Virus record (IMG/VR): IMGVR_UViG_3300037400_002553
Coordinates: 1-64,000 of that record
DNA length: 64,000 nucleotides
Reading direction: 5' to 3' (one strand)
DNA from: a virus
Taxonomy: Duplodnaviria > Caudoviricetes
The first letter of the stretch is position 1, and each line of letters starts with the position of its first letter. Both the position numbers and the translations under genes were made by a program. The notes below the pieces were generated by a model. That model made no database searches and was not told the DNA's origin. It saw nothing but the letters and a program-made list of their open reading frames with translations. Shown in pieces: positions 529-56,733 of this stretch.

Positions 529-562
529 ACTTTTTACTTTTAAGTAAATATACAAAAAAAAT

Positions 563-4567: not shown

Positions 4568-4715
4568 AGTAAATTTTTTATTTTAAATTATTTTATTATT
4601 ACACGACAAAATCTAAATTGTTATTATTCTACTAAATTAAATATACAAAAAATATATCAAAAATAAATACAAAATAAATTTTATCCTTTATACTTATAAA
4701 TACATTTTTAGGTAT

Positions 4716-6641: not shown

Positions 6642-6685
6642 AAGTTTTAACCAAAAAATATTAAACGTTGTAAATATACAAATTT

Positions 6686-20852: not shown

Positions 20853-20911
20853 ATTTCTTTATATATTTTTTCTAATTATAAATACTTTCTCCTATAATAT
20901 TTAACAACAAA

Positions 20912-20934
20912 AAAACACTCAAATAGAGTGTTTT
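20912..20934 (-). terminator. Intrinsic terminator upstream of the tape measure gene
   Basis: AAAACACTC-AAATA-GAGTGTTTT hairpin at the stop of 20933. Confidence 0.7.
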
Positions 20935-21232
20935 ATTGCCTTTTTAAGTTAGATTGTTCCATTTCTGCATAAGCATTTAATGCTGCGCCATCAACAGTCT
21001 TAGGCTTACCGTCATTATGCTTACCTGGGTCGTTTGCTTCATTATGTCTTTTTATCCAATATTTTCTAATATATACTGGCATCTCATACATTACTGTTTC
21101 GTATGGTATCTTGACGTAATTTACACACCCCCATATTTCATCCCATAATGCGTTTTCTGCTTCTGGATTATTAGATATTGACGAAAATAAACTGATCAAA
21201 TCGCAGAAAGGTACTAACAGAGCCACCTCCAA
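20933..21232 (-). CDS. Tail assembly chaperone second ORF (gp51/GT-like); true start uncertain
   Basis: LWDEIW...IPYETVMYEMPVYIRKYWI motif; overlaps the upstream gene in the +1 frame; no in-frame ATG before the conserved part. Confidence 0.55.
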   Translation of the reverse strand: MEVALLVPFCDLISLFSSISNNPEAENALWDEIWGCVNYVKIPYETVMYEMPVYIRKYWIKRHNEANDPGKHNDGKPKTVDGAALNAYAEMEQSNLKRQ

Positions 21233-30913: not shown

Positions 30914-31013
30914 AATTATTATTTTATTTTAATTTGATTATTCACTTATTTTATAATAAATACTTTCTTTCTTTCGAAAAATACAGTTAGTTTGTATTTA
31001 TTTTACTAAAATT

Positions 31014-32060
31014 TTATACTTTAGTGCCATTAATGATGAATGTAGCCTCTTTGTTTTTAACTATTTTATTACACATAACCTTTATTTCATCACCGTTATG
31101 AAGTGTTACGTTTCCATCTATCTTATCTCCATTAACATAAATTTTGTAATTATTGAGTATATTATCAAGGTCGACTCCAGTCATTTCAAAATCCGTATCG
31201 TTTTTAAAATGAATTATGTTCTTGGTACACTTTATCGGGAAGAAAACTGTTATTTTAATATCTTTACCATTTTCACAATCTTCAATTTCAGCATCTGGTA
31301 TATTTATTTTACTAGGCATGGATAATATATTAACGCCTCTCTTTATTGGAATCTCTTCAACTCTATAGTCATCCTCAGTTATGATATATGCCATTACTTT
31401 AATATTAAATGTTTGTGCATAGTACTGTCTATCATCTATTTGATAAGATGATTCGTCAGATATACTCTCTAATGTCATTGGCATGAAGTGCCCATTTGGC
31501 CTAATATAACACTGTCTTGCCCTAAACTTTCTATTGATTAATGTGTTGAACTCATTTATCTTGTCGTATTTGTTTGTAAATACAGATATTTTATAAACCA
31601 AATCAATTGCTGTTGGCTGATGCATTTTTAGTACTAAGAATGACTCTGACCCATTATCATCCAATACAATTTGTTTCTTCATTGTATAGAATCTATCTTC
31701 ACCTGGTACGTTCCAGTAGCCATTTTGTATTTTGCCTAATTCTGGGTTATTATCACGGCTAATAGATTTAAAATTTAATAGAATATTTTTATCTTTATCT
31801 GTAAAACGCCACGATTGGGTATATTCTGAGAATCTTTGATTACTAAACAACACCATCGTTGGAAATTCTCTTCCATCATCGGACGTAATTGTTAAATCCT
31901 GTTCGACCCAGCGTTTAAAATCATCATCAATGTCTTTATACTCCACAGTTTTAGGTAGGAAGGTACCGTTTTTCAGTATCTCCGACATTAATTCATACCT
32001 TCTGTCATTTCCGACATAATGTGAATGTATGTCTAAATAATTTTTATACTCTTCTGCCAT
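31014..32060 (-). CDS. Putative tail terminator / sheath stabiliser (gp15-like)
   Basis: Position between neck and sheath genes; PTAIDLVYKISVFT, HFMPMTLESISDES, QTFNIKVMAY. Confidence 0.5.
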   Translation of the reverse strand: MAEEYKNYLDIHSHYVGNDRRYELMSEILKNGTFLPKTVEYKDIDDDFKRWVEQDLTITSDDGREFPTMVLFSNQRFSEYTQSWRFTDKDKNILLNFKSISRDNNPELGKIQNGYWNVPGEDRFYTMKKQIVLDDNGSESFLVLKMHQPTAIDLVYKISVFTNKYDKINEFNTLINRKFRARQCYIRPNGHFMPMTLESISDESSYQIDDRQYYAQTFNIKVMAYIITEDDYRVEEIPIKRGVNILSMPSKINIPDAEIEDCENGKDIKITVFFPIKCTKNIIHFKNDTDFEMTGVDLDNILNNYKIYVNGDKIDGNVTLHNGDEIKVMCNKIVKNKEATFIINGTKV

Positions 32061-34192: not shown

Positions 34193-34331
34193 TTTATTCA
34201 AAAATGTTTATACACTATTATTTACTTATAAATAGTTTTTATCATCGAAATAATATAATTTTTGTATATTTATTTTGTATTTATATACAGAAAGCGAAAA
34301 ATAACACAAAGTAACAAATAAGATATAAATT

Positions 34332-35486
34332 ATGCAAAAAGAAAGTAAAGTACAATTATCAAAAATGATGTCTTTAATGGAACGTATGGATAAACATTAC
34401 ACCAATGATCAAGCAAAGGTTTTATTAGAGAACGATTTGAGAAGCAAAAATCTTTTAAAAGAAGAAATTGAAGAGGCTGATAGGGGTACAGCCGTTCAAA
34501 TTGACAACAACACTTACTCATTAAGTGATCCAGAAGAATTAGTTAGAGTGTTATCCAAGAAAGATATGACGCCCCAAAAAGGCTGGTTTGTAACCATGGG
34601 TTATGTATGCGGCGTTACGGAATTAGGCGATAAACAAATTCAAAAAGGTGTCGACTCATTTGAACCAGGTTCCCCAGAAAGAGTAAAATCATTAGGTTTC
34701 GATAGATTAAATAACATTATTGATAATCCAACGATTATTGATAAGGGTATAAATAAAGGCAAAATTAAAAACCCATATATGCCAGATAGTAATTCAAACT
34801 TTATTGTTAAAGTTGAAAAAATACAACTAATGTATGGTAGAAATGAAGAATATGGCAAGCGTAAACAAGATGTCGAACACGATTTAGAGGCATACCAACA
34901 CGAGAATCCAGAAGATGTACAACATTATATCGATTATGTAGCAAATAGGCCAAAGAATCCATATCAAATAACAAGTTTCCCACAACAAGCATATGGTATG
35001 AAGAGCGACAATAGAACAAGAGTTCCAAATACCAACATATTCCAGTATCCAGACGGAAGTTATGAAATGGACTTCAATACTCCTCTTAAAGTTTATAAAC
35101 GTCTAAAGGTTGCTTATTTCTTAATTAATGACGAAAATAATATTGAAGAAATAACCCCAGAAGAAGTAAAAGCATACGTTGACTTATTTGGTGTTAAAGC
35201 AAATAAAAAAGTTGCTAACGAGGATGAAATTGTCGCAAGAGTTGAGAAATTTATAAACGATACAAAGACAAAACGCCATAATGGGGACTTATATAATCAC
35301 TACAAACTAAATAGCATCTTCTTACTTAACTTTGCAACAGAAGATGGAAGACAAAAATTACAATTCTACAATCCAAACGCTGTTGTTAGATTTGTTAAGG
35401 GAAAGGAATTGAAGAGCGGAATAACTCCTTCAAGATATACAGCATCTGGACTGCTTAAACCTCATCTTGAAAAAATGAAACAATAA
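34332..35486 (+). CDS. Hypothetical protein, possible internal head protein
   Basis: 384 aa; KMMSLMERM...LLE..LLKEE N-terminus. Confidence 0.6.
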   Translation: MQKESKVQLSKMMSLMERMDKHYTNDQAKVLLENDLRSKNLLKEEIEEADRGTAVQIDNNTYSLSDPEELVRVLSKKDMTPQKGWFVTMGYVCGVTELGDKQIQKGVDSFEPGSPERVKSLGFDRLNNIIDNPTIIDKGINKGKIKNPYMPDSNSNFIVKVEKIQLMYGRNEEYGKRKQDVEHDLEAYQHENPEDVQHYIDYVANRPKNPYQITSFPQQAYGMKSDNRTRVPNTNIFQYPDGSYEMDFNTPLKVYKRLKVAYFLINDENNIEEITPEEVKAYVDLFGVKANKKVANEDEIVARVEKFINDTKTKRHNGDLYNHYKLNSIFLLNFATEDGRQKLQFYNPNAVVRFVKGKELKSGITPSRYTASGLLKPHLEKMKQ

Positions 35487-35506
35487 TTTTAGTTCATAAT
35501 TTTTAG

Positions 35507-35534
35507 GGAGATAAGAAATTATCTCCTATTTTTT
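35507..35534 (+). terminator. Intrinsic terminator
   Basis: GGAGATAA-GAAA-TTATCTCC followed by T-run. Confidence 0.75.
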
Positions 35535-35566
35535 GTATATTTACAAAGAATAATACAAAACTTACA

Positions 35567-43874: not shown

Positions 43875-44165
43875 TTATATATACATAATACCATTTTTTA
43901 TTCCTTCATCAGTTAACTCAATGTAAGCAACATTATTACTAATTTCATCTGCACTGTATATAATACCATTTTTAATATATACGTCACCTCCACCGAACCA
44001 CAATTCATGTATTTCATCATCAGTAATAAATGTGTACCCGTCTTTGACGAGGTACATTGCTTCAGGGTCATAGCTGTAGCCACCAACGGTGCCACCGTTG
44101 ATTAATATCTCGTAATTCTCACGAGAGATTTTTATGATTGTTTCTAATTTTCCTATATTTGCCAT
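43875..44165 (-). CDS. Small fibre-associated protein
   Basis: 96 aa; KISRENYEIL...MYLVKD motif resembling short fibre-shaft motifs. Confidence 0.55.
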   Translation of the reverse strand: MANIGKLETIIKISRENYEILINGGTVGGYSYDPEAMYLVKDGYTFITDDEIHELWFGGGDVYIKNGIIYSADEISNNVAYIELTDEGIKNGIMYI

Positions 44166-44225
44166 TTTTTATTAAAAAATTTACTATATAATGGTATTTT
44201 TTTTGTTATTTGGATGTATTTATAT

Positions 44226-44300
44226 AACAGAGAGCAACTTCGATGACTCCTTTGATTGGTACCTGTGGTACGTGAGGATGTTGGGTCTGCTCTCTTTTTT
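44226..44300 (+). ncRNA. Putative small structured RNA A
   Basis: GTATTTATATA upstream, AGAGAGCA/TGCTCTCT closing stem, T6 tail, no plus-strand gene upstream. Confidence 0.45.
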
Positions 44301-45051
44301 AATATATTCTATAATACGTTATCCAGTTCTTCTTATCAGTACTATTAATATTGTTTTTCATCGCCCTATATTTATAATGATAAATACTTTTACGGCGAGG
44401 GCATCTAGATACTATTGGTATTATAGTTATTGTATTTCTTAATCCACAACCCCTATTATTTGTCTTTATTTTGTTTAGAAACGAGTGAGACAAATTATTT
44501 TTAGACGATAAACCAATAAGTTTTACTAAATGTTTTTTATTACGCATTATTTTTTTACCACGCTCAACATAACTCCAAAAAGTCTCCTTATACGAACGTT
44601 GATGTTGTTTTTTATAACGTCTAGTTCTGGATATTACATTATATGAGTCAATAGTTAATTTTCTAATACATATAATATTACCGTCTCGGATAATAAAATT
44701 TTGTGAGGTTGTGTTTGCATTTAAATTTCTTGCCTTTCTGACAAATTGTTTTACATATTCTACATCATTCATTTTAGAAAAATCTAAATTCTCTGGCACT
44801 GTAAATATACATGCGATACCCCACACCATTTCATTTTCGTTAATAGGATACGGTTTGACATATGAATAACCAACATCGTGTTCTTCATCTTTATATTTCA
44901 CCATGCCATCTTGAAAATAATACTGCATTCCAGGCACAGAATTAGGCCTTATTACTCTACCAAACACAACTGTAGGCATATCACCAATTGGTAATATGTT
45001 ATATAACTTATCATCTTGCCTATTATGTACTCTACTTACAAATTGTCCCAT
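44299..45051 (-). CDS. Hypothetical protein, paralog A, basic C-terminal half
   Basis: Shares GDMPTVVFGRVIR.NSVPGMQYYF.DG and DVEYVKQF.RKA.NLNA.TTS with 45291..46067. Confidence 0.8.
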   Translation of the reverse strand: MGQFVSRVHNRQDDKLYNILPIGDMPTVVFGRVIRPNSVPGMQYYFQDGMVKYKDEEHDVGYSYVKPYPINENEMVWGIACIFTVPENLDFSKMNDVEYVKQFVRKARNLNANTTSQNFIIRDGNIICIRKLTIDSYNVISRTRRYKKQHQRSYKETFWSYVERGKKIMRNKKHLVKLIGLSSKNNLSHSFLNKIKTNNRGCGLRNTITIIPIVSRCPRRKSIYHYKYRAMKNNINSTDKKNWITYYRIY

Positions 45052-45124
45052 ATCTTTTACTATATAATATTTCTATATATAATAAATACTTTCTACGCAG
45101 AAAAACAAACACATATTAACAACA

Positions 45125-45149
45125 AAAATAACCGCCAAGAAATTGACGG
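45125..45149 (-). terminator. Probable terminator for the paralog B transcript
   Basis: CCG-CAA-GAAA-TTG-CGG imperfect hairpin followed by TTATTTTTG on the minus strand. Confidence 0.45.
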
Positions 45150-45217
45150 CTATAAAAATATTTTTAGAAAAAAATTACTTTTTCTTGCATTTTTTTAATA
45201 TATGGTAGTATTTATAT

Positions 45218-45292
45218 ATGGCGAACGACATTCATAAAACCTTATTCCAATGACTTTTGTCTCGGTGGTATTTGAAGCTGTTCGTTTTTTTT
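45218..45292 (+). ncRNA. Putative small structured RNA B
   Basis: GTATTTATATA upstream, GCGAAC/GTTCGT closing stem, internal TTCA/TGAA and ACC/GGT helices, T8 tail. Confidence 0.45.
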
Positions 45293-46067
45293 ATACCTCT
45301 TTCAGTTTCCATCCGCCTACTATACCTTCTTCGAAGTTGTACCATTTAGCGGTTCGTATAAATTCATGCCTTTCTCCTGTTGTGTTATATTTAACTCGTT
45401 GAAGTCCAGAATTCTCGTATTTGACTTTATATTTTACTCTTCCAACTGGTATTAATGTGAATTTATTTGGCTTATTTTTTGTTTGCCCTAATAAGGGGTT
45501 TTCAATATGTCCATCATGCCCATTTAAAAAATCAGAAAAACGCTCACCTTCAGACATTGAAACCTCTCCGCAAACACTATTTACTTTTCTATATACTGGC
45601 TCATCGTTATATATTTTTTTCCTCCTTTTACAAGTAACTACAACATATTTTCCTGGTGCATCTAATGGTTTAATACATTTAATATGACCATTCTCAATAA
45701 CATAATATGGAGAAGTTGTTTTAGCATTTAAATTTTGTGCTTTTCTACAAAATTGCTTAACATATTCCACATCAGATAACTTGGAATAATCAAAATTATC
45801 AGGTATTGTAAATATACAAGGAGTACCCCATTTATCCTCACCTAATTCCTGTTCTTCAACCGCATAAGGTGTAACGTGTTCAAAAGTTTTGGAACTTCCT
45901 TCTACATGCCATTTAACCCATCCATCTGGAAAATAATATTGCATTCCAGGAACGCTATTTTCTCTAATTACTCTACCGAATACAACTGTCGGCATATCTC
46001 CAAGAGGTAATATATTATACACTTTACCATCTTCTTTACTATGAACTCTACTAGCGAAATTTCCCAT
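45291..46067 (-). CDS. Hypothetical protein, paralog B
   Basis: Tandem paralog of 44299..45051. Confidence 0.8.
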   Translation of the reverse strand: MGNFASRVHSKEDGKVYNILPLGDMPTVVFGRVIRENSVPGMQYYFPDGWVKWHVEGSSKTFEHVTPYAVEEQELGEDKWGTPCIFTIPDNFDYSKLSDVEYVKQFCRKAQNLNAKTTSPYYVIENGHIKCIKPLDAPGKYVVVTCKRRKKIYNDEPVYRKVNSVCGEVSMSEGERFSDFLNGHDGHIENPLLGQTKNKPNKFTLIPVGRVKYKVKYENSGLQRVKYNTTGERHEFIRTAKWYNFEEGIVGGWKLKEV

Positions 46068-46587: not shown

Positions 46588-48261
46588 TTAATTTTGCTCC
46601 TCGGTATATATCATTTCTAATGGTGTTGGATTGTATACAACATTTGGGAAATATTCAATTCTATCAAATGGCATTTTACTTGGTGCCTCTGAATAGTCAA
46701 GATTTTCATCCCAATTAAACCATGTTACAAATTCTGGCGAATCCATTGTAAAAGGTAACGACGAAATCCAAAGTGTATTTGTTAAAATTTTTTGTTGAGC
46801 CAAGTCATCATCTACAGTTGCTTTTACTTTATTACAATATCTGTACCACACGAAACATCTTTGACCATTGTATTCGACTGTTTCTCCATCATATTGTAAA
46901 TAATCTCCTTTACCATCTTCAATAAAGCCAGATTCAAGGTCATAATTGTACATTCTAACTCCAACATTAGCCATTTTAACTTTTCTCTCGCCATTATCAT
47001 ACTCATTAACTTGAGCAATACAAATATGGGCTGGCATTATATAATCCTTTTTATCCTCTCCACTGTCAATCGCTATGAGATATGCAATCTCTGGTGAATC
47101 TTCTGTTAATGGTAAATCTGGTTCTAAAGTTGTTGTTAATAAGAGCAAATGGCTATTAACGAAAAATTCCTCAAAACTACCTCCATTATATTCTTCATAT
47201 GGTCTCCAAAGATAATATGTTTCACCTTCAAATTCATATGTTTCATCATTCTCATTAATGAATGCTTCTTTTAATGTTAATGGGTATGAATTTGTTGATT
47301 CATATGTATAACTACTATGCTCACTGCTATCAATAACAAGGTATCTTTTAATAATTTTATTATCTTCATAAACTCTATCAGGGAAGTACTCTATTCTATC
47401 GAATGGTAAATCAACTGGGTCTGGATAACCGTCATCATAACTTATGCATGTTACAAATTCTGGTGAGTCTTTTGTAAATGGGAGGCTATGTATCCATAGT
47501 GTGTTAGTGTAAATTTGTTGTAAATTATACCAACCGTTATCTTTTCCTTCCTCGGTACATAATTCATCCGTATCATATCTATTCCACACAAAGCATCTTT
47601 GCCCTTCATAATCAACTGTTTCTCCATCGTATTGGAAATAATCCCATATATAATCATCCCCGCTATAATCAATTAGGCCATAATTAGTTTCATAAGCATA
47701 CATTCTAACTCCGACATTAGCCATCCTGGTTTCTTGCTCTCCAGTATTATATTCTATACATTCAGATAAGAAAATATACTTACCATCAGTATAAGTTGTT
47801 ATATTATCAACTTCGCCAGTTCCATTTGTTATAATAATTATATAACCAAATTCGCTTGAATCCATTGTAAAAGGTAATGAAACATCTAAATTGCTTGTTA
47901 ATAAATAGACATATGAGTCTTGCCTGTTATTAAACGGTTCAGGATTTGTACTTTCATTGTACTGTGCATACCCCTTCCATACATAATACGTGTTTCCTTC
48001 AAACTCCATTGTTTCATCATTTTCATTGACAAATGATTCTAACAGAGACAATGGATATTTATTAGTTTTTTCTATTAAGTAATTACTATGTTCACTACTA
48101 TCCCTCACCAAATATCTCTTGACAATTTTCTTTTCTGGCGGCTCAGGTTCTACCCATTTAGCAGGATAGGCAGGAAAATATCTTTCCCCGCCCATATAGA
48201 TTGCCCATTCATGGTTATCTATTTTCGTGTTATAATATTTCGGTATTAAAATTTCACTCAT
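46588..48261 (-). CDS. Acidic protein made of two ~255-aa tandem modules
   Basis: KRYLVxDSSEHS, MANVGVRMY, QYDGETVxYxGQRCFVW, TNTLWIxSLPFTxDSPEFVT and PFDRIEYFP each occur twice. Confidence 0.8.
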   Translation of the reverse strand: MSEILIPKYYNTKIDNHEWAIYMGGERYFPAYPAKWVEPEPPEKKIVKRYLVRDSSEHSNYLIEKTNKYPLSLLESFVNENDETMEFEGNTYYVWKGYAQYNESTNPEPFNNRQDSYVYLLTSNLDVSLPFTMDSSEFGYIIIITNGTGEVDNITTYTDGKYIFLSECIEYNTGEQETRMANVGVRMYAYETNYGLIDYSGDDYIWDYFQYDGETVDYEGQRCFVWNRYDTDELCTEEGKDNGWYNLQQIYTNTLWIHSLPFTKDSPEFVTCISYDDGYPDPVDLPFDRIEYFPDRVYEDNKIIKRYLVIDSSEHSSYTYESTNSYPLTLKEAFINENDETYEFEGETYYLWRPYEEYNGGSFEEFFVNSHLLLLTTTLEPDLPLTEDSPEIAYLIAIDSGEDKKDYIMPAHICIAQVNEYDNGERKVKMANVGVRMYNYDLESGFIEDGKGDYLQYDGETVEYNGQRCFVWYRYCNKVKATVDDDLAQQKILTNTLWISSLPFTMDSPEFVTWFNWDENLDYSEAPSKMPFDRIEYFPNVVYNPTPLEMIYTEEQN

Positions 48262-52061: not shown

Positions 52062-52111
52062 ATATCAATAAATACTTTTTAATGTAGGAATTAATATAAT
52101 ATCTGGCAGAA

Positions 52112-56650: not shown

Positions 56651-56703
56651 TTATGATAAATACTTTTTCCATGAATAAAACAAAATAATTTTGCCCTAAA
56701 ATA

Positions 56704-56733
56704 TTGACACAATCAAATTTTTATGTATATTTA
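56704..56733 (+). promoter_or_regulatory. Host-type promoter upstream of the DNA polymerase gene
   Basis: TTGACA (56704-56709), 16-nt spacer, TATATT within the shared TGTATATTTA motif. Confidence 0.55.

Follow-up and report, generated by a model that had tools for sequence, protein, structure and literature searches.

Two tandem units, each comprising a promoter-like motif, an imperfect hairpin and a run of T residues, were found at the 3' ends of two paralogous genes (A and B) in a 64,000-nt stretch of DNA from an uncultivated rumen phage (hereafter, the window), which corresponds to positions 1-64,000 of the 74,203-nt IMG/VR virus record IMGVR_UViG_3300037400_002553. In both units, a plus-strand imperfect hairpin of 65-67 nt follows the motif GTATTTAT at a distance of 4-5 nt and is convergent with the minus-strand gene. 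From this anatomy, a plus-strand transcription unit appears fairly likely to exist at A and B, and the units are probably a new variation on the convergent antisense RNAs known from phages. More tentatively, and with somewhat less than even confidence, we propose that the resulting ~72-nt RNAs would pair with the read-through message immediately beyond the stop codon, in the manner of lambda OOP RNA and cII. An original prediction for this stretch had held that each protein was duplicated together with its own promoter-driven small RNA. A promoter-like box, a hairpin and a T-run were indeed present for each paralog, and a third such unit was found in an independent rumen-type metagenome contig (L001), whereas transcription of the units stays a prediction. 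To our knowledge, the small RNAs of uncultivated phages are almost unexplored.

In unit A, a 29-nt promoter-like block (44198-44226, plus strand; repeat family D3) with its GTATTTAT core at 44216-44223 precedes candidate RNA A (44229-44300, plus strand; ~72 nt, G+C content (GC) 49%), which consists of an imperfect rod (44229-44295) followed by a U-run to 44300. The closing stem is formed by AGAGAGCA (44229-44236) and TGCTCTCT (44288-44295), and the T6 at 44295-44300, which places five T after the stem, overlaps the TAA of gene A (44299-44301). In unit B, the corresponding block (45190-45218, plus strand; core at 45208-45215) precedes candidate RNA B (45220-45292, plus strand; ~72 nt, GC 40%), with its rod at 45220-45286 and U-run to 45292. 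Here, GCGAAC (45221-45226) pairs with GTTCGT (45280-85), to which the fold adds a G45220-U45286 pair, and the T8 at 45285-45292 overlaps the TAA of gene B (45291-45293). The apical hairpins, TACC-TGT-GGTA in A and GAC-TTTT-GTC in B, were confirmed; stems, apical hairpins and T-runs overlapping the stop codons lay almost to the base where the original prediction had placed them. No tandem repeats were found in the units; there is one hairpin per gene, downstream and on the opposite strand, and hairpin GC is 40-49% as compared to 32% for the genome. When folded as plus-strand RNA, A reached -25.1 kcal/mol (z -3.1) and B -14.5 kcal/mol (z -1.2, weak), while the minus strand gave -19.7 (z -3.7) and -16.3 kcal/mol (z -3.3), respectively. 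The hairpins are real structures, yet their folding by itself does not decide between the strands. As to termination, closing stems of 6-8 or more bp are followed on the plus strand by T6, T8 and T8 in A, B and L001, respectively, an arrangement of stem and U-run that is predicted to act as an intrinsic terminator and release a discrete short RNA in all three. On the minus strand, the tails past the stem start with GUUAUAUAAAU, CCAUAUAUAAAU and AUACUAAUAAAU and contain no U-run, i.e., U-tracts occur only on the plus strand, as had been claimed, and the hairpins do not have the form of intrinsic terminators for the A and B mRNAs.

The geometry of the units was scanned at every position on both strands of the 74,203 nt, requiring a stem of at least 6 bp that opens 2-8 nt downstream and a 3' arm abutting a run of at least T6 50-90 nt downstream. 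It was found at six places on the two strands, two of which were units A and B, directly behind the motif. With a frequency of ~1.5-2.8e-4 per position, ~0.005 coincidences would be expected at the 20 GTATTTAT sites versus the two seen in the record, plus one in L001. In a stricter scan, hairpin A was the sole intergenic case, and the unit as a whole (motif plus geometry) occurs in the record only beside the A/B family. The layout of the units is non-random and specific to this gene family. One could still suppose that they have no function, being chance palindromes or a DNA-level feature such as the recombination scar of swapped cassettes, since there are only three full examples and mosaic boundaries fall at the motif-hairpin junction. 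However, the joint geometry recurs far beyond its expected frequency, once in an independent contig, and size, closing stem and raised GC are common to three sequences that are otherwise unrelated; we therefore regard an absence of function as highly improbable.

To place the motif among the signals of this phage, every intergenic region was listed in the orientation of its downstream gene and the core GTATTTAT was then mapped. Thirteen of the 20 copies were intergenic, and at least nine of the intergenic ones were sense-oriented and located 5-130 nt before a start codon, the genes including those for sheath and tape measure as well as gene A (copy GTATTTATTA at 45080-45089, minus strand, likely the gene A promoter and back to back with the promoter of unit B). 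When C was allowed at the first base, the number of sense copies rose to at least 14, with the extra ones before 24699, 25210, 34201, 70176 and 71185. Several sense copies directly follow an ordinary hairpin and T-run terminator. The longer 11-mer, GTATTTATATA, occurs without mismatch exactly three times in the 64 kb (34277, 44216 and 45208), always on the plus strand and between genes. The copy outside the units (34277-34287) lies 45 nt 5' of the ATG of the plus-strand gene 34332-35486 and is itself preceded by a second class of motif, in agreement with the claim that the 11-mer also stands before a normal gene; in addition, the region upstream of unit A resembles the tandem promoter of this gene over ~30 nt. 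Taken together, GTATTTAT is best read as one of the phage's promoter boxes. Since three sense copies are only 4-6 nt before an ATG (52061, 56650 and 70176) and another is ~10 nt before the Shine-Dalgarno sequence of the 5987 gene, transcription is predicted to start 5-7 nt past the box. The closing stem begins 5 (A), 4 (B) and 6 (L001) nt after the motif; given the predicted start and this position of the stem, the transcript would extend from the rod's first base into the U-run, with a length of ~72 nt in both units. The unit motif thus matches a recurrent sense motif at gene starts and its spacing fits the predicted start site, although the motif could also be read in reverse. An archaeal TATA-box reading of TTTATATA was rejected, since the copy ~10 nt before a Shine-Dalgarno sequence means that the start site must be near the motif and since hairpin-type terminators are in use. 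As a separate observation, the [G/C]TATTTAT boxes that stand 4-6 nt before annotated ATGs (52068-52075, minus strand; 56656-56663, minus strand; 70164-70171, plus strand) suggest leaderless late mRNAs or mis-called starts.

In the sequence of events that we favor, the GTATTTAT box in the conserved 29-nt block would fire, with transcription starting 5-7 nt on, at the first base of the closing stem. The transcript would fold as one imperfect rod, whose closing stem and U5-U8 would form an intrinsic terminator positioned precisely at the A or B stop codon. Promoter activity, start site and termination are all deduced here from sequence. The minus-strand mRNAs would be unterminated at this point. 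Neither message has a terminator between its stop codon and the hairpin; the next one for B is a canonical, short intrinsic terminator at 45128-45153 (minus strand, ~65 nt past hairpin B), which had been predicted and is conserved in L001, and for A there is none before the 96-aa gene downstream, into which the A message would run. Since no terminator intervenes, each read-through message would bear the exact complement of the small RNA right after its stop codon, and because the small RNA ends at the stop codon, it would be antisense only to the untranslated read-through stretch and not to coding sequence. By analogy with OOP, we infer that pairing would form a duplex of ~65 bp, cleavable by a double-strand-specific ribonuclease (RNase), and that the 3' end of the A or B message would consequently be trimmed or destabilized, or the message uncoupled from its downstream genes. 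A cis-antisense RNA may drift in sequence as long as its shape is kept, which matches the drift observed among the hairpins. A target in trans was also considered for each RNA and rejected, as the longest complement elsewhere in the contig was 11-12 nt, i.e., at chance level. The original prediction had further pointed to complementarity between ATTGG in one loop and CCAAT in the other; five nucleotides shared by two loops are likewise expected by chance.

Several observations weigh against convergent antisense RNAs. On the mRNA strand, the folds have z-scores that equal or surpass those on the plus strand (-3.7, -3.3 and -4.4 versus -3.1, -1.2 and -2.4 for A, B and L001, respectively), and the plus-strand fold of B is weak. 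Intrinsic terminators are generally shorter than a multi-bulged hairpin of 65 nt. Most sense copies of the motif have an A-rich stretch in front of them, which is missing from the antisense units, and a reversed GTATTTAT at 30994 has no hairpin, so that reversed copies can evidently arise without an RNA gene. Finally, only three full units could be compared, for which RNAalifold recovered the closing stem alone, with few compensatory pairs. The fourth reversed copy just mentioned (30994-31001, plus strand) is 12 nt from the stop of gene 31014-32060, has neither hairpin nor T-run, and is separated by 30 nt from the sense copy in front of the sheath gene.

Considering these z-scores, which are better for the minus strand at all three loci, the hairpins might instead act on the mRNA strand, within the read-through mRNAs in which they sit, as 3' stabilizers or double-strand RNase sites after the stop codons of A and B, as do the T7 RNase III sites and lambda sib. 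On the minus strand, the 11-mer reads TATATAAATAC and would then mark the beginning of a conserved downstream module, possibly as a T4-type late promoter, and the T-runs would merely be A-runs after TAA. The reversed motif does hold TATAAATA, the T4 late-promoter box, facing the downstream genes; sense TATAAATA occurs before several minus-strand genes (17982, 24584 and 34278), and the block conserved among relatives starts exactly at this box. However, in unit B, L001 and a relative's contig (X3), transcription from such a promoter would run straight into a terminator 60 nt downstream. TATAAATA is barely enriched (29 seen versus 21 expected) and no sense copy of it precedes the genes for sheath, tape measure and other structural proteins, where GTATTTAT is found instead. 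The scans with PHROG and Pfam, which covered most open reading frames (ORFs) at 62-74 kb, revealed no sigma-like gene, including T4 gp55-like ones, in a record that holds only about one-fifth of the genome. Moreover, A6-A8 abutting the stem in three of three units and the constant motif spacing of 4-6 nt would be left unexplained. We therefore consider action on the mRNA strand, which is the main alternative, rather unlikely; if it were the case, the hairpins would be RNA processing or stability elements of an ordinary kind.

The same promoter and terminator anatomy could also serve a purely transcriptional effect, in which a convergent promoter just beyond the stop codon obstructs, or collides with, the polymerases that leave A or B and thereby insulates the downstream genes, while the hairpin and T-run only stop the reverse transcript from entering the gene. 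The lack of a significant complement to the RNAs elsewhere in the contig agrees with this. However, it would not explain a rod of constant size (65 nt) when the ordinary terminators of this phage are 20-25 nt, and unit B is followed by a real terminator anyway; we judge a transcription-level effect improbable. Those ordinary terminators (e.g., 45128-45153 and those in the intergenic regions 529-592, 20853-21170 and 35487-35566) resemble the units in having a GC-containing stem followed by a T-run, but they have stems of 6-11 bp with loops of 3-7 nt and are sense-oriented, whereas in the units the stem surrounds a further 45-50 nt of structure and there is no gene upstream that they would face.

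Returning to convergent antisense RNAs, among the closest known systems is lambda OOP, a 77-nt antisense RNA that is convergent with cII and causes RNase III-dependent cleavage of cII mRNA. Like OOP, each unit would produce a short, convergent phage RNA that runs from promoter to terminator, ends at the 3' end of a gene, and is expected to pair with the message of that gene. However, OOP overlaps ~50 nt of the cII coding sequence, whereas the unit RNAs would extend no further than the stop codon, leaving only untranslated read-through RNA to pair with. Also unlike OOP, the whole unit RNA is a single rod whose closing stem doubles as the terminator, and it occurs as two tandem copies tied to paralogs; there was no sequence similarity to OOP and no Rfam match. 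In the txpA/RatA and bsrG/SR4 pairs of Bacillus prophages, which are type I toxin-antitoxin systems, antisense RNAs overlap the 3' ends of the toxin genes, and the toxins are hydrophobic peptides of <60 aa. The units share with these pairs the meeting of convergent RNA and protein genes at their 3' ends in phage DNA, but A and B, with 250 and 258 aa and mostly beta structure, are without hydrophobic-peptide character. Type III (ToxIN-like) systems have tandem antitoxin RNA repeats upstream and on the same strand, whereas the units have a single downstream hairpin on the opposite strand. T7 intergenic RNase III hairpins and lambda sib are imperfect hairpins of ~60 nt with internal loops, located directly after ORFs and conserved in shape over sequence. 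The units resemble them in size, internal loops, the keeping of shape rather than sequence, position right after an ORF, and presence in polycistronic phage mRNA; however, the T7 and sib elements act on the mRNA strand and, unlike the units, have no opposite-strand promoter box or U-run.

The frame of A, B and the L001 homolog is open for 24-31 codons past the TAA (44299-44180, minus strand; 45293-45170, minus strand; L001:1229-1348, plus strand). Frameshifting or read-through past the TAA, with frame 0 open through three hairpins, was rejected, as other frames are open too and there is no slippery site before the stop. Given that the hairpins are GC-rich and that open stretches are frequent in the other frames as well, the open frame is probably a composition effect.

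L001 was the only related locus in metagenome contigs; none was found in the viral contig and genome contig collections, nor did exact DNA patterns for the terminator and for the promoter block retrieve anything from them. In L001, the family member ends in TAA and an A-run (T8 on the opposite strand, at the stop codon), followed by an unrelated hairpin of 62 nt and then, 6 nt from the stem, by GTATTTATTAG on the opposite strand. The terminator and the sense promoter that lie downstream of B recur past GTATTTATTAG. The distance from motif to T-run is 86 (A), 86 (B) and 84 (L001) nt. While units A and B are 83% identical across the 29-nt block that surrounds the box, and L001 is similar there, the hairpins are unalignable, which bears out the claim that they are alike in topology but not in sequence. 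To the comparison of DNA past the homologs' stop codons, which was proposed with the original prediction as a check, L001 contributed the third unit with promoter box and hairpin. Further pieces came from Logan contigs of four other metagenomes: one contig (X4) carries a B-like hairpin with ~84% identity, another (X3) has an A-like hairpin joined to a B-type terminator, and two relatives' contigs match up to the box (44223 and 45220) and then continue into unrelated sequence. The picture suggested by these contigs is a conserved promoter block followed by a rod that drifts freely in sequence, though constrained in size, and always behind the A/B family. Two other ORFs of L001 may be mentioned. 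The gene after the terminator (L001:1470-1715, plus strand) starts MRKYEVDRIHNSKDNEIYQI and shares the N-terminal peptide motif SRIHSKEDGKVYNI with A and B, the rest being different; this peptide may be a common docking peptide. The ORF upstream of the family member (L001:2-184, plus strand) is a chimera, with an N-terminus similar to window gene 46588-48261 and a C-terminus similar to 43875-44165.

The proteins encoded by A (44299-45051, minus strand; 250 aa) and B (45291-46067, minus strand; 258 aa) belong to one family. They are 57% identical across the first 151 aa (E 2e-61), the N-terminal 135 aa of B being conserved, and have divergent, basic C-halves with isoelectric points (pI) of 10.8 (A) and 9.5 (B) as compared to 6.7 and 6.1 for the N-halves, so that the paralogy with a conserved N-part and basic C-halves originally claimed was confirmed. 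Neither Pfam nor PHROG contains a family for A/B, and no match to an RNA-binding, nuclease or toxin family was found there. The AlphaFold (AF2) model is mostly beta, with a predicted local distance difference test score (pLDDT) of 68. Foldseek, named at the outset as a check on both proteins, returned no match in PDB or BFVD at E <=0.001; the best VIA-align Z in structural comparison of the model was 3.8, which is not a convincing match, and a sequence profile search of PDB yielded nothing. Atlas scores of 0.8 are at noise level, and the beta-trefoil lectin rows among them are a lead only. Residues 1-28 of protein B (MGNFASRIHSKEDGKVYNILPLGDMPTV; 46067-45984, minus strand) are the best-conserved part of the family, and these same residues are modelled as disordered (pLDDT below 50), which would fit a peptide that becomes ordered upon binding a partner.

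The family is known only from metagenomes, with 27 close members and ~36 by profile search. In distant relatives, the A/B domain forms the C-terminal module of tail-fiber-like proteins of 650-1535 aa and is accompanied by a similar basic tail; two of these relatives have weak matches to tail-fiber PHROGs. For example, in P0037, P0040 and P0049, the conserved domain and basic tail make up the C-terminal 150-200 residues of tail-fiber-like proteins of 804-1535 aa. A and B therefore look like free-standing copies of a fiber-tip module. Since the domain recurs at the C-terminus of tail-fiber-like proteins, its distribution favors a role as a tail-associated structural protein or adhesin over that of a toxin or a dedicated RNA-binding protein. 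The toxin-antitoxin analogy drawn in the original prediction is thus not borne out for mostly beta proteins of ~250 aa whose domain recurs in this way, and its ribonucleoprotein analogy fares no better, as nothing besides the basic C-half points to RNA binding.

That analogy corresponds to a further possibility, in which the units are cognate RNA-protein pairs, each rod RNA being bound by the variable basic C-half of its neighbor in a ribonucleoprotein or an RNA-antitoxin-like complex. It would account for the joint divergence of hairpin and C-half. In its favor, the C-halves are basic (pI 9.5-10.8), hairpin and C-half are both hypervariable between conserved flanks, and the unit is found in the record only next to the A/B family. 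However, Pfam and PHROGs gave no RNA-binding, nuclease or toxin match, the domain is a C-terminal module of tail-fiber-like proteins, genes A and B are located among tail-fiber genes, and co-divergence would equally be expected of any neutral stretch in one swapped cassette, a cis-antisense RNA being likewise free to drift. We consider such pairs decidedly unlikely. The specific version in which each paralog binds its own co-diversifying rod RNA, e.g., as a packaged or counter-defense ribonucleoprotein, or with the RNA keeping the protein inactive until assembly, seems slightly more doubtful still; if true, it would be a type of cassette not described for phages.

If the units are transcribed as convergent RNAs, they would represent a family of late-region phage genes that has retained a convergent RNA of its own during duplication and cassette exchange, with a conserved promoter and with an RNA that is free to drift in sequence while its shape and size stay fixed. 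This would suggest post-transcriptional tuning of tail-fiber-module genes, and it would provide a simple search signature for metagenomic phages, namely, a promoter box of its own, a rod at the start site, and a T-run at the neighbor's stop codon.

The record as a whole is estimated by CheckV to be ~21% complete and has a GC of 31.8%; record-wide scans covered all 74 kb. It encodes tail sheath, baseplate hub, tape measure, a family B DNA polymerase, an SNF2 helicase and BspA-type repeat proteins, and on the basis of this gene content it is from a tailed, contractile-tail phage of an uncultivated lineage. Most of the stretch is present in only one sequencing run, a bovine gut metagenome that is a possible source, and no RNA run was among those listed for this DNA. 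Searches of a phage collection with blastn and tblastn gave no match to the region or to protein B, and the family B DNA polymerase had only distant matches there (25% identity). Across the window, Rfam gave no match at gathering threshold, and a local scan of the units returned only noise (E 0.9-1.3; 19-23 bits versus gathering scores of 45-55); searches for tRNA and tmRNA were also negative. An RVT_1 match, which the reverse transcriptase of a diversity-generating retroelement would give, was not found in the 74-kb record, itself an estimated ~21% of the genome.

A second promoter-like motif, TTTTTTGTATATTTA, occurs in sense orientation before helicase, DNA polymerase and other genes, e.g., at 35535-35543 (plus), 56725-56733 (plus), 6671-6679 (minus), 4638-4646 (minus), 545-553 (minus) and 34264-34272 (plus). 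Its core TATATTTA matches seven of eight positions of TAnnTTTG, which we take to be the Bacteroidota -7 box, and this resemblance may point to a host from the Bacteroidota and to a class of early or middle genes.

The A/B locus is inside a minus-strand run of tail-fiber-like genes. Downstream of A, the 96-aa gene (43875-44165, minus strand) has no sense motif of its own and no terminator before it, and is therefore presumably co-transcribed with A through hairpin A. The same 13-mer, which reads TTTACTATATAAT on the plus and ATTATATAGTAAA on the minus strand, is found at 44180-44192 and 45056-45068, just 5' of the ATG of the 96-aa gene and of that of gene A, respectively. The stretch 44155-44212 is covered by many contigs from other metagenomes, and this leader therefore seems to be widely shared.

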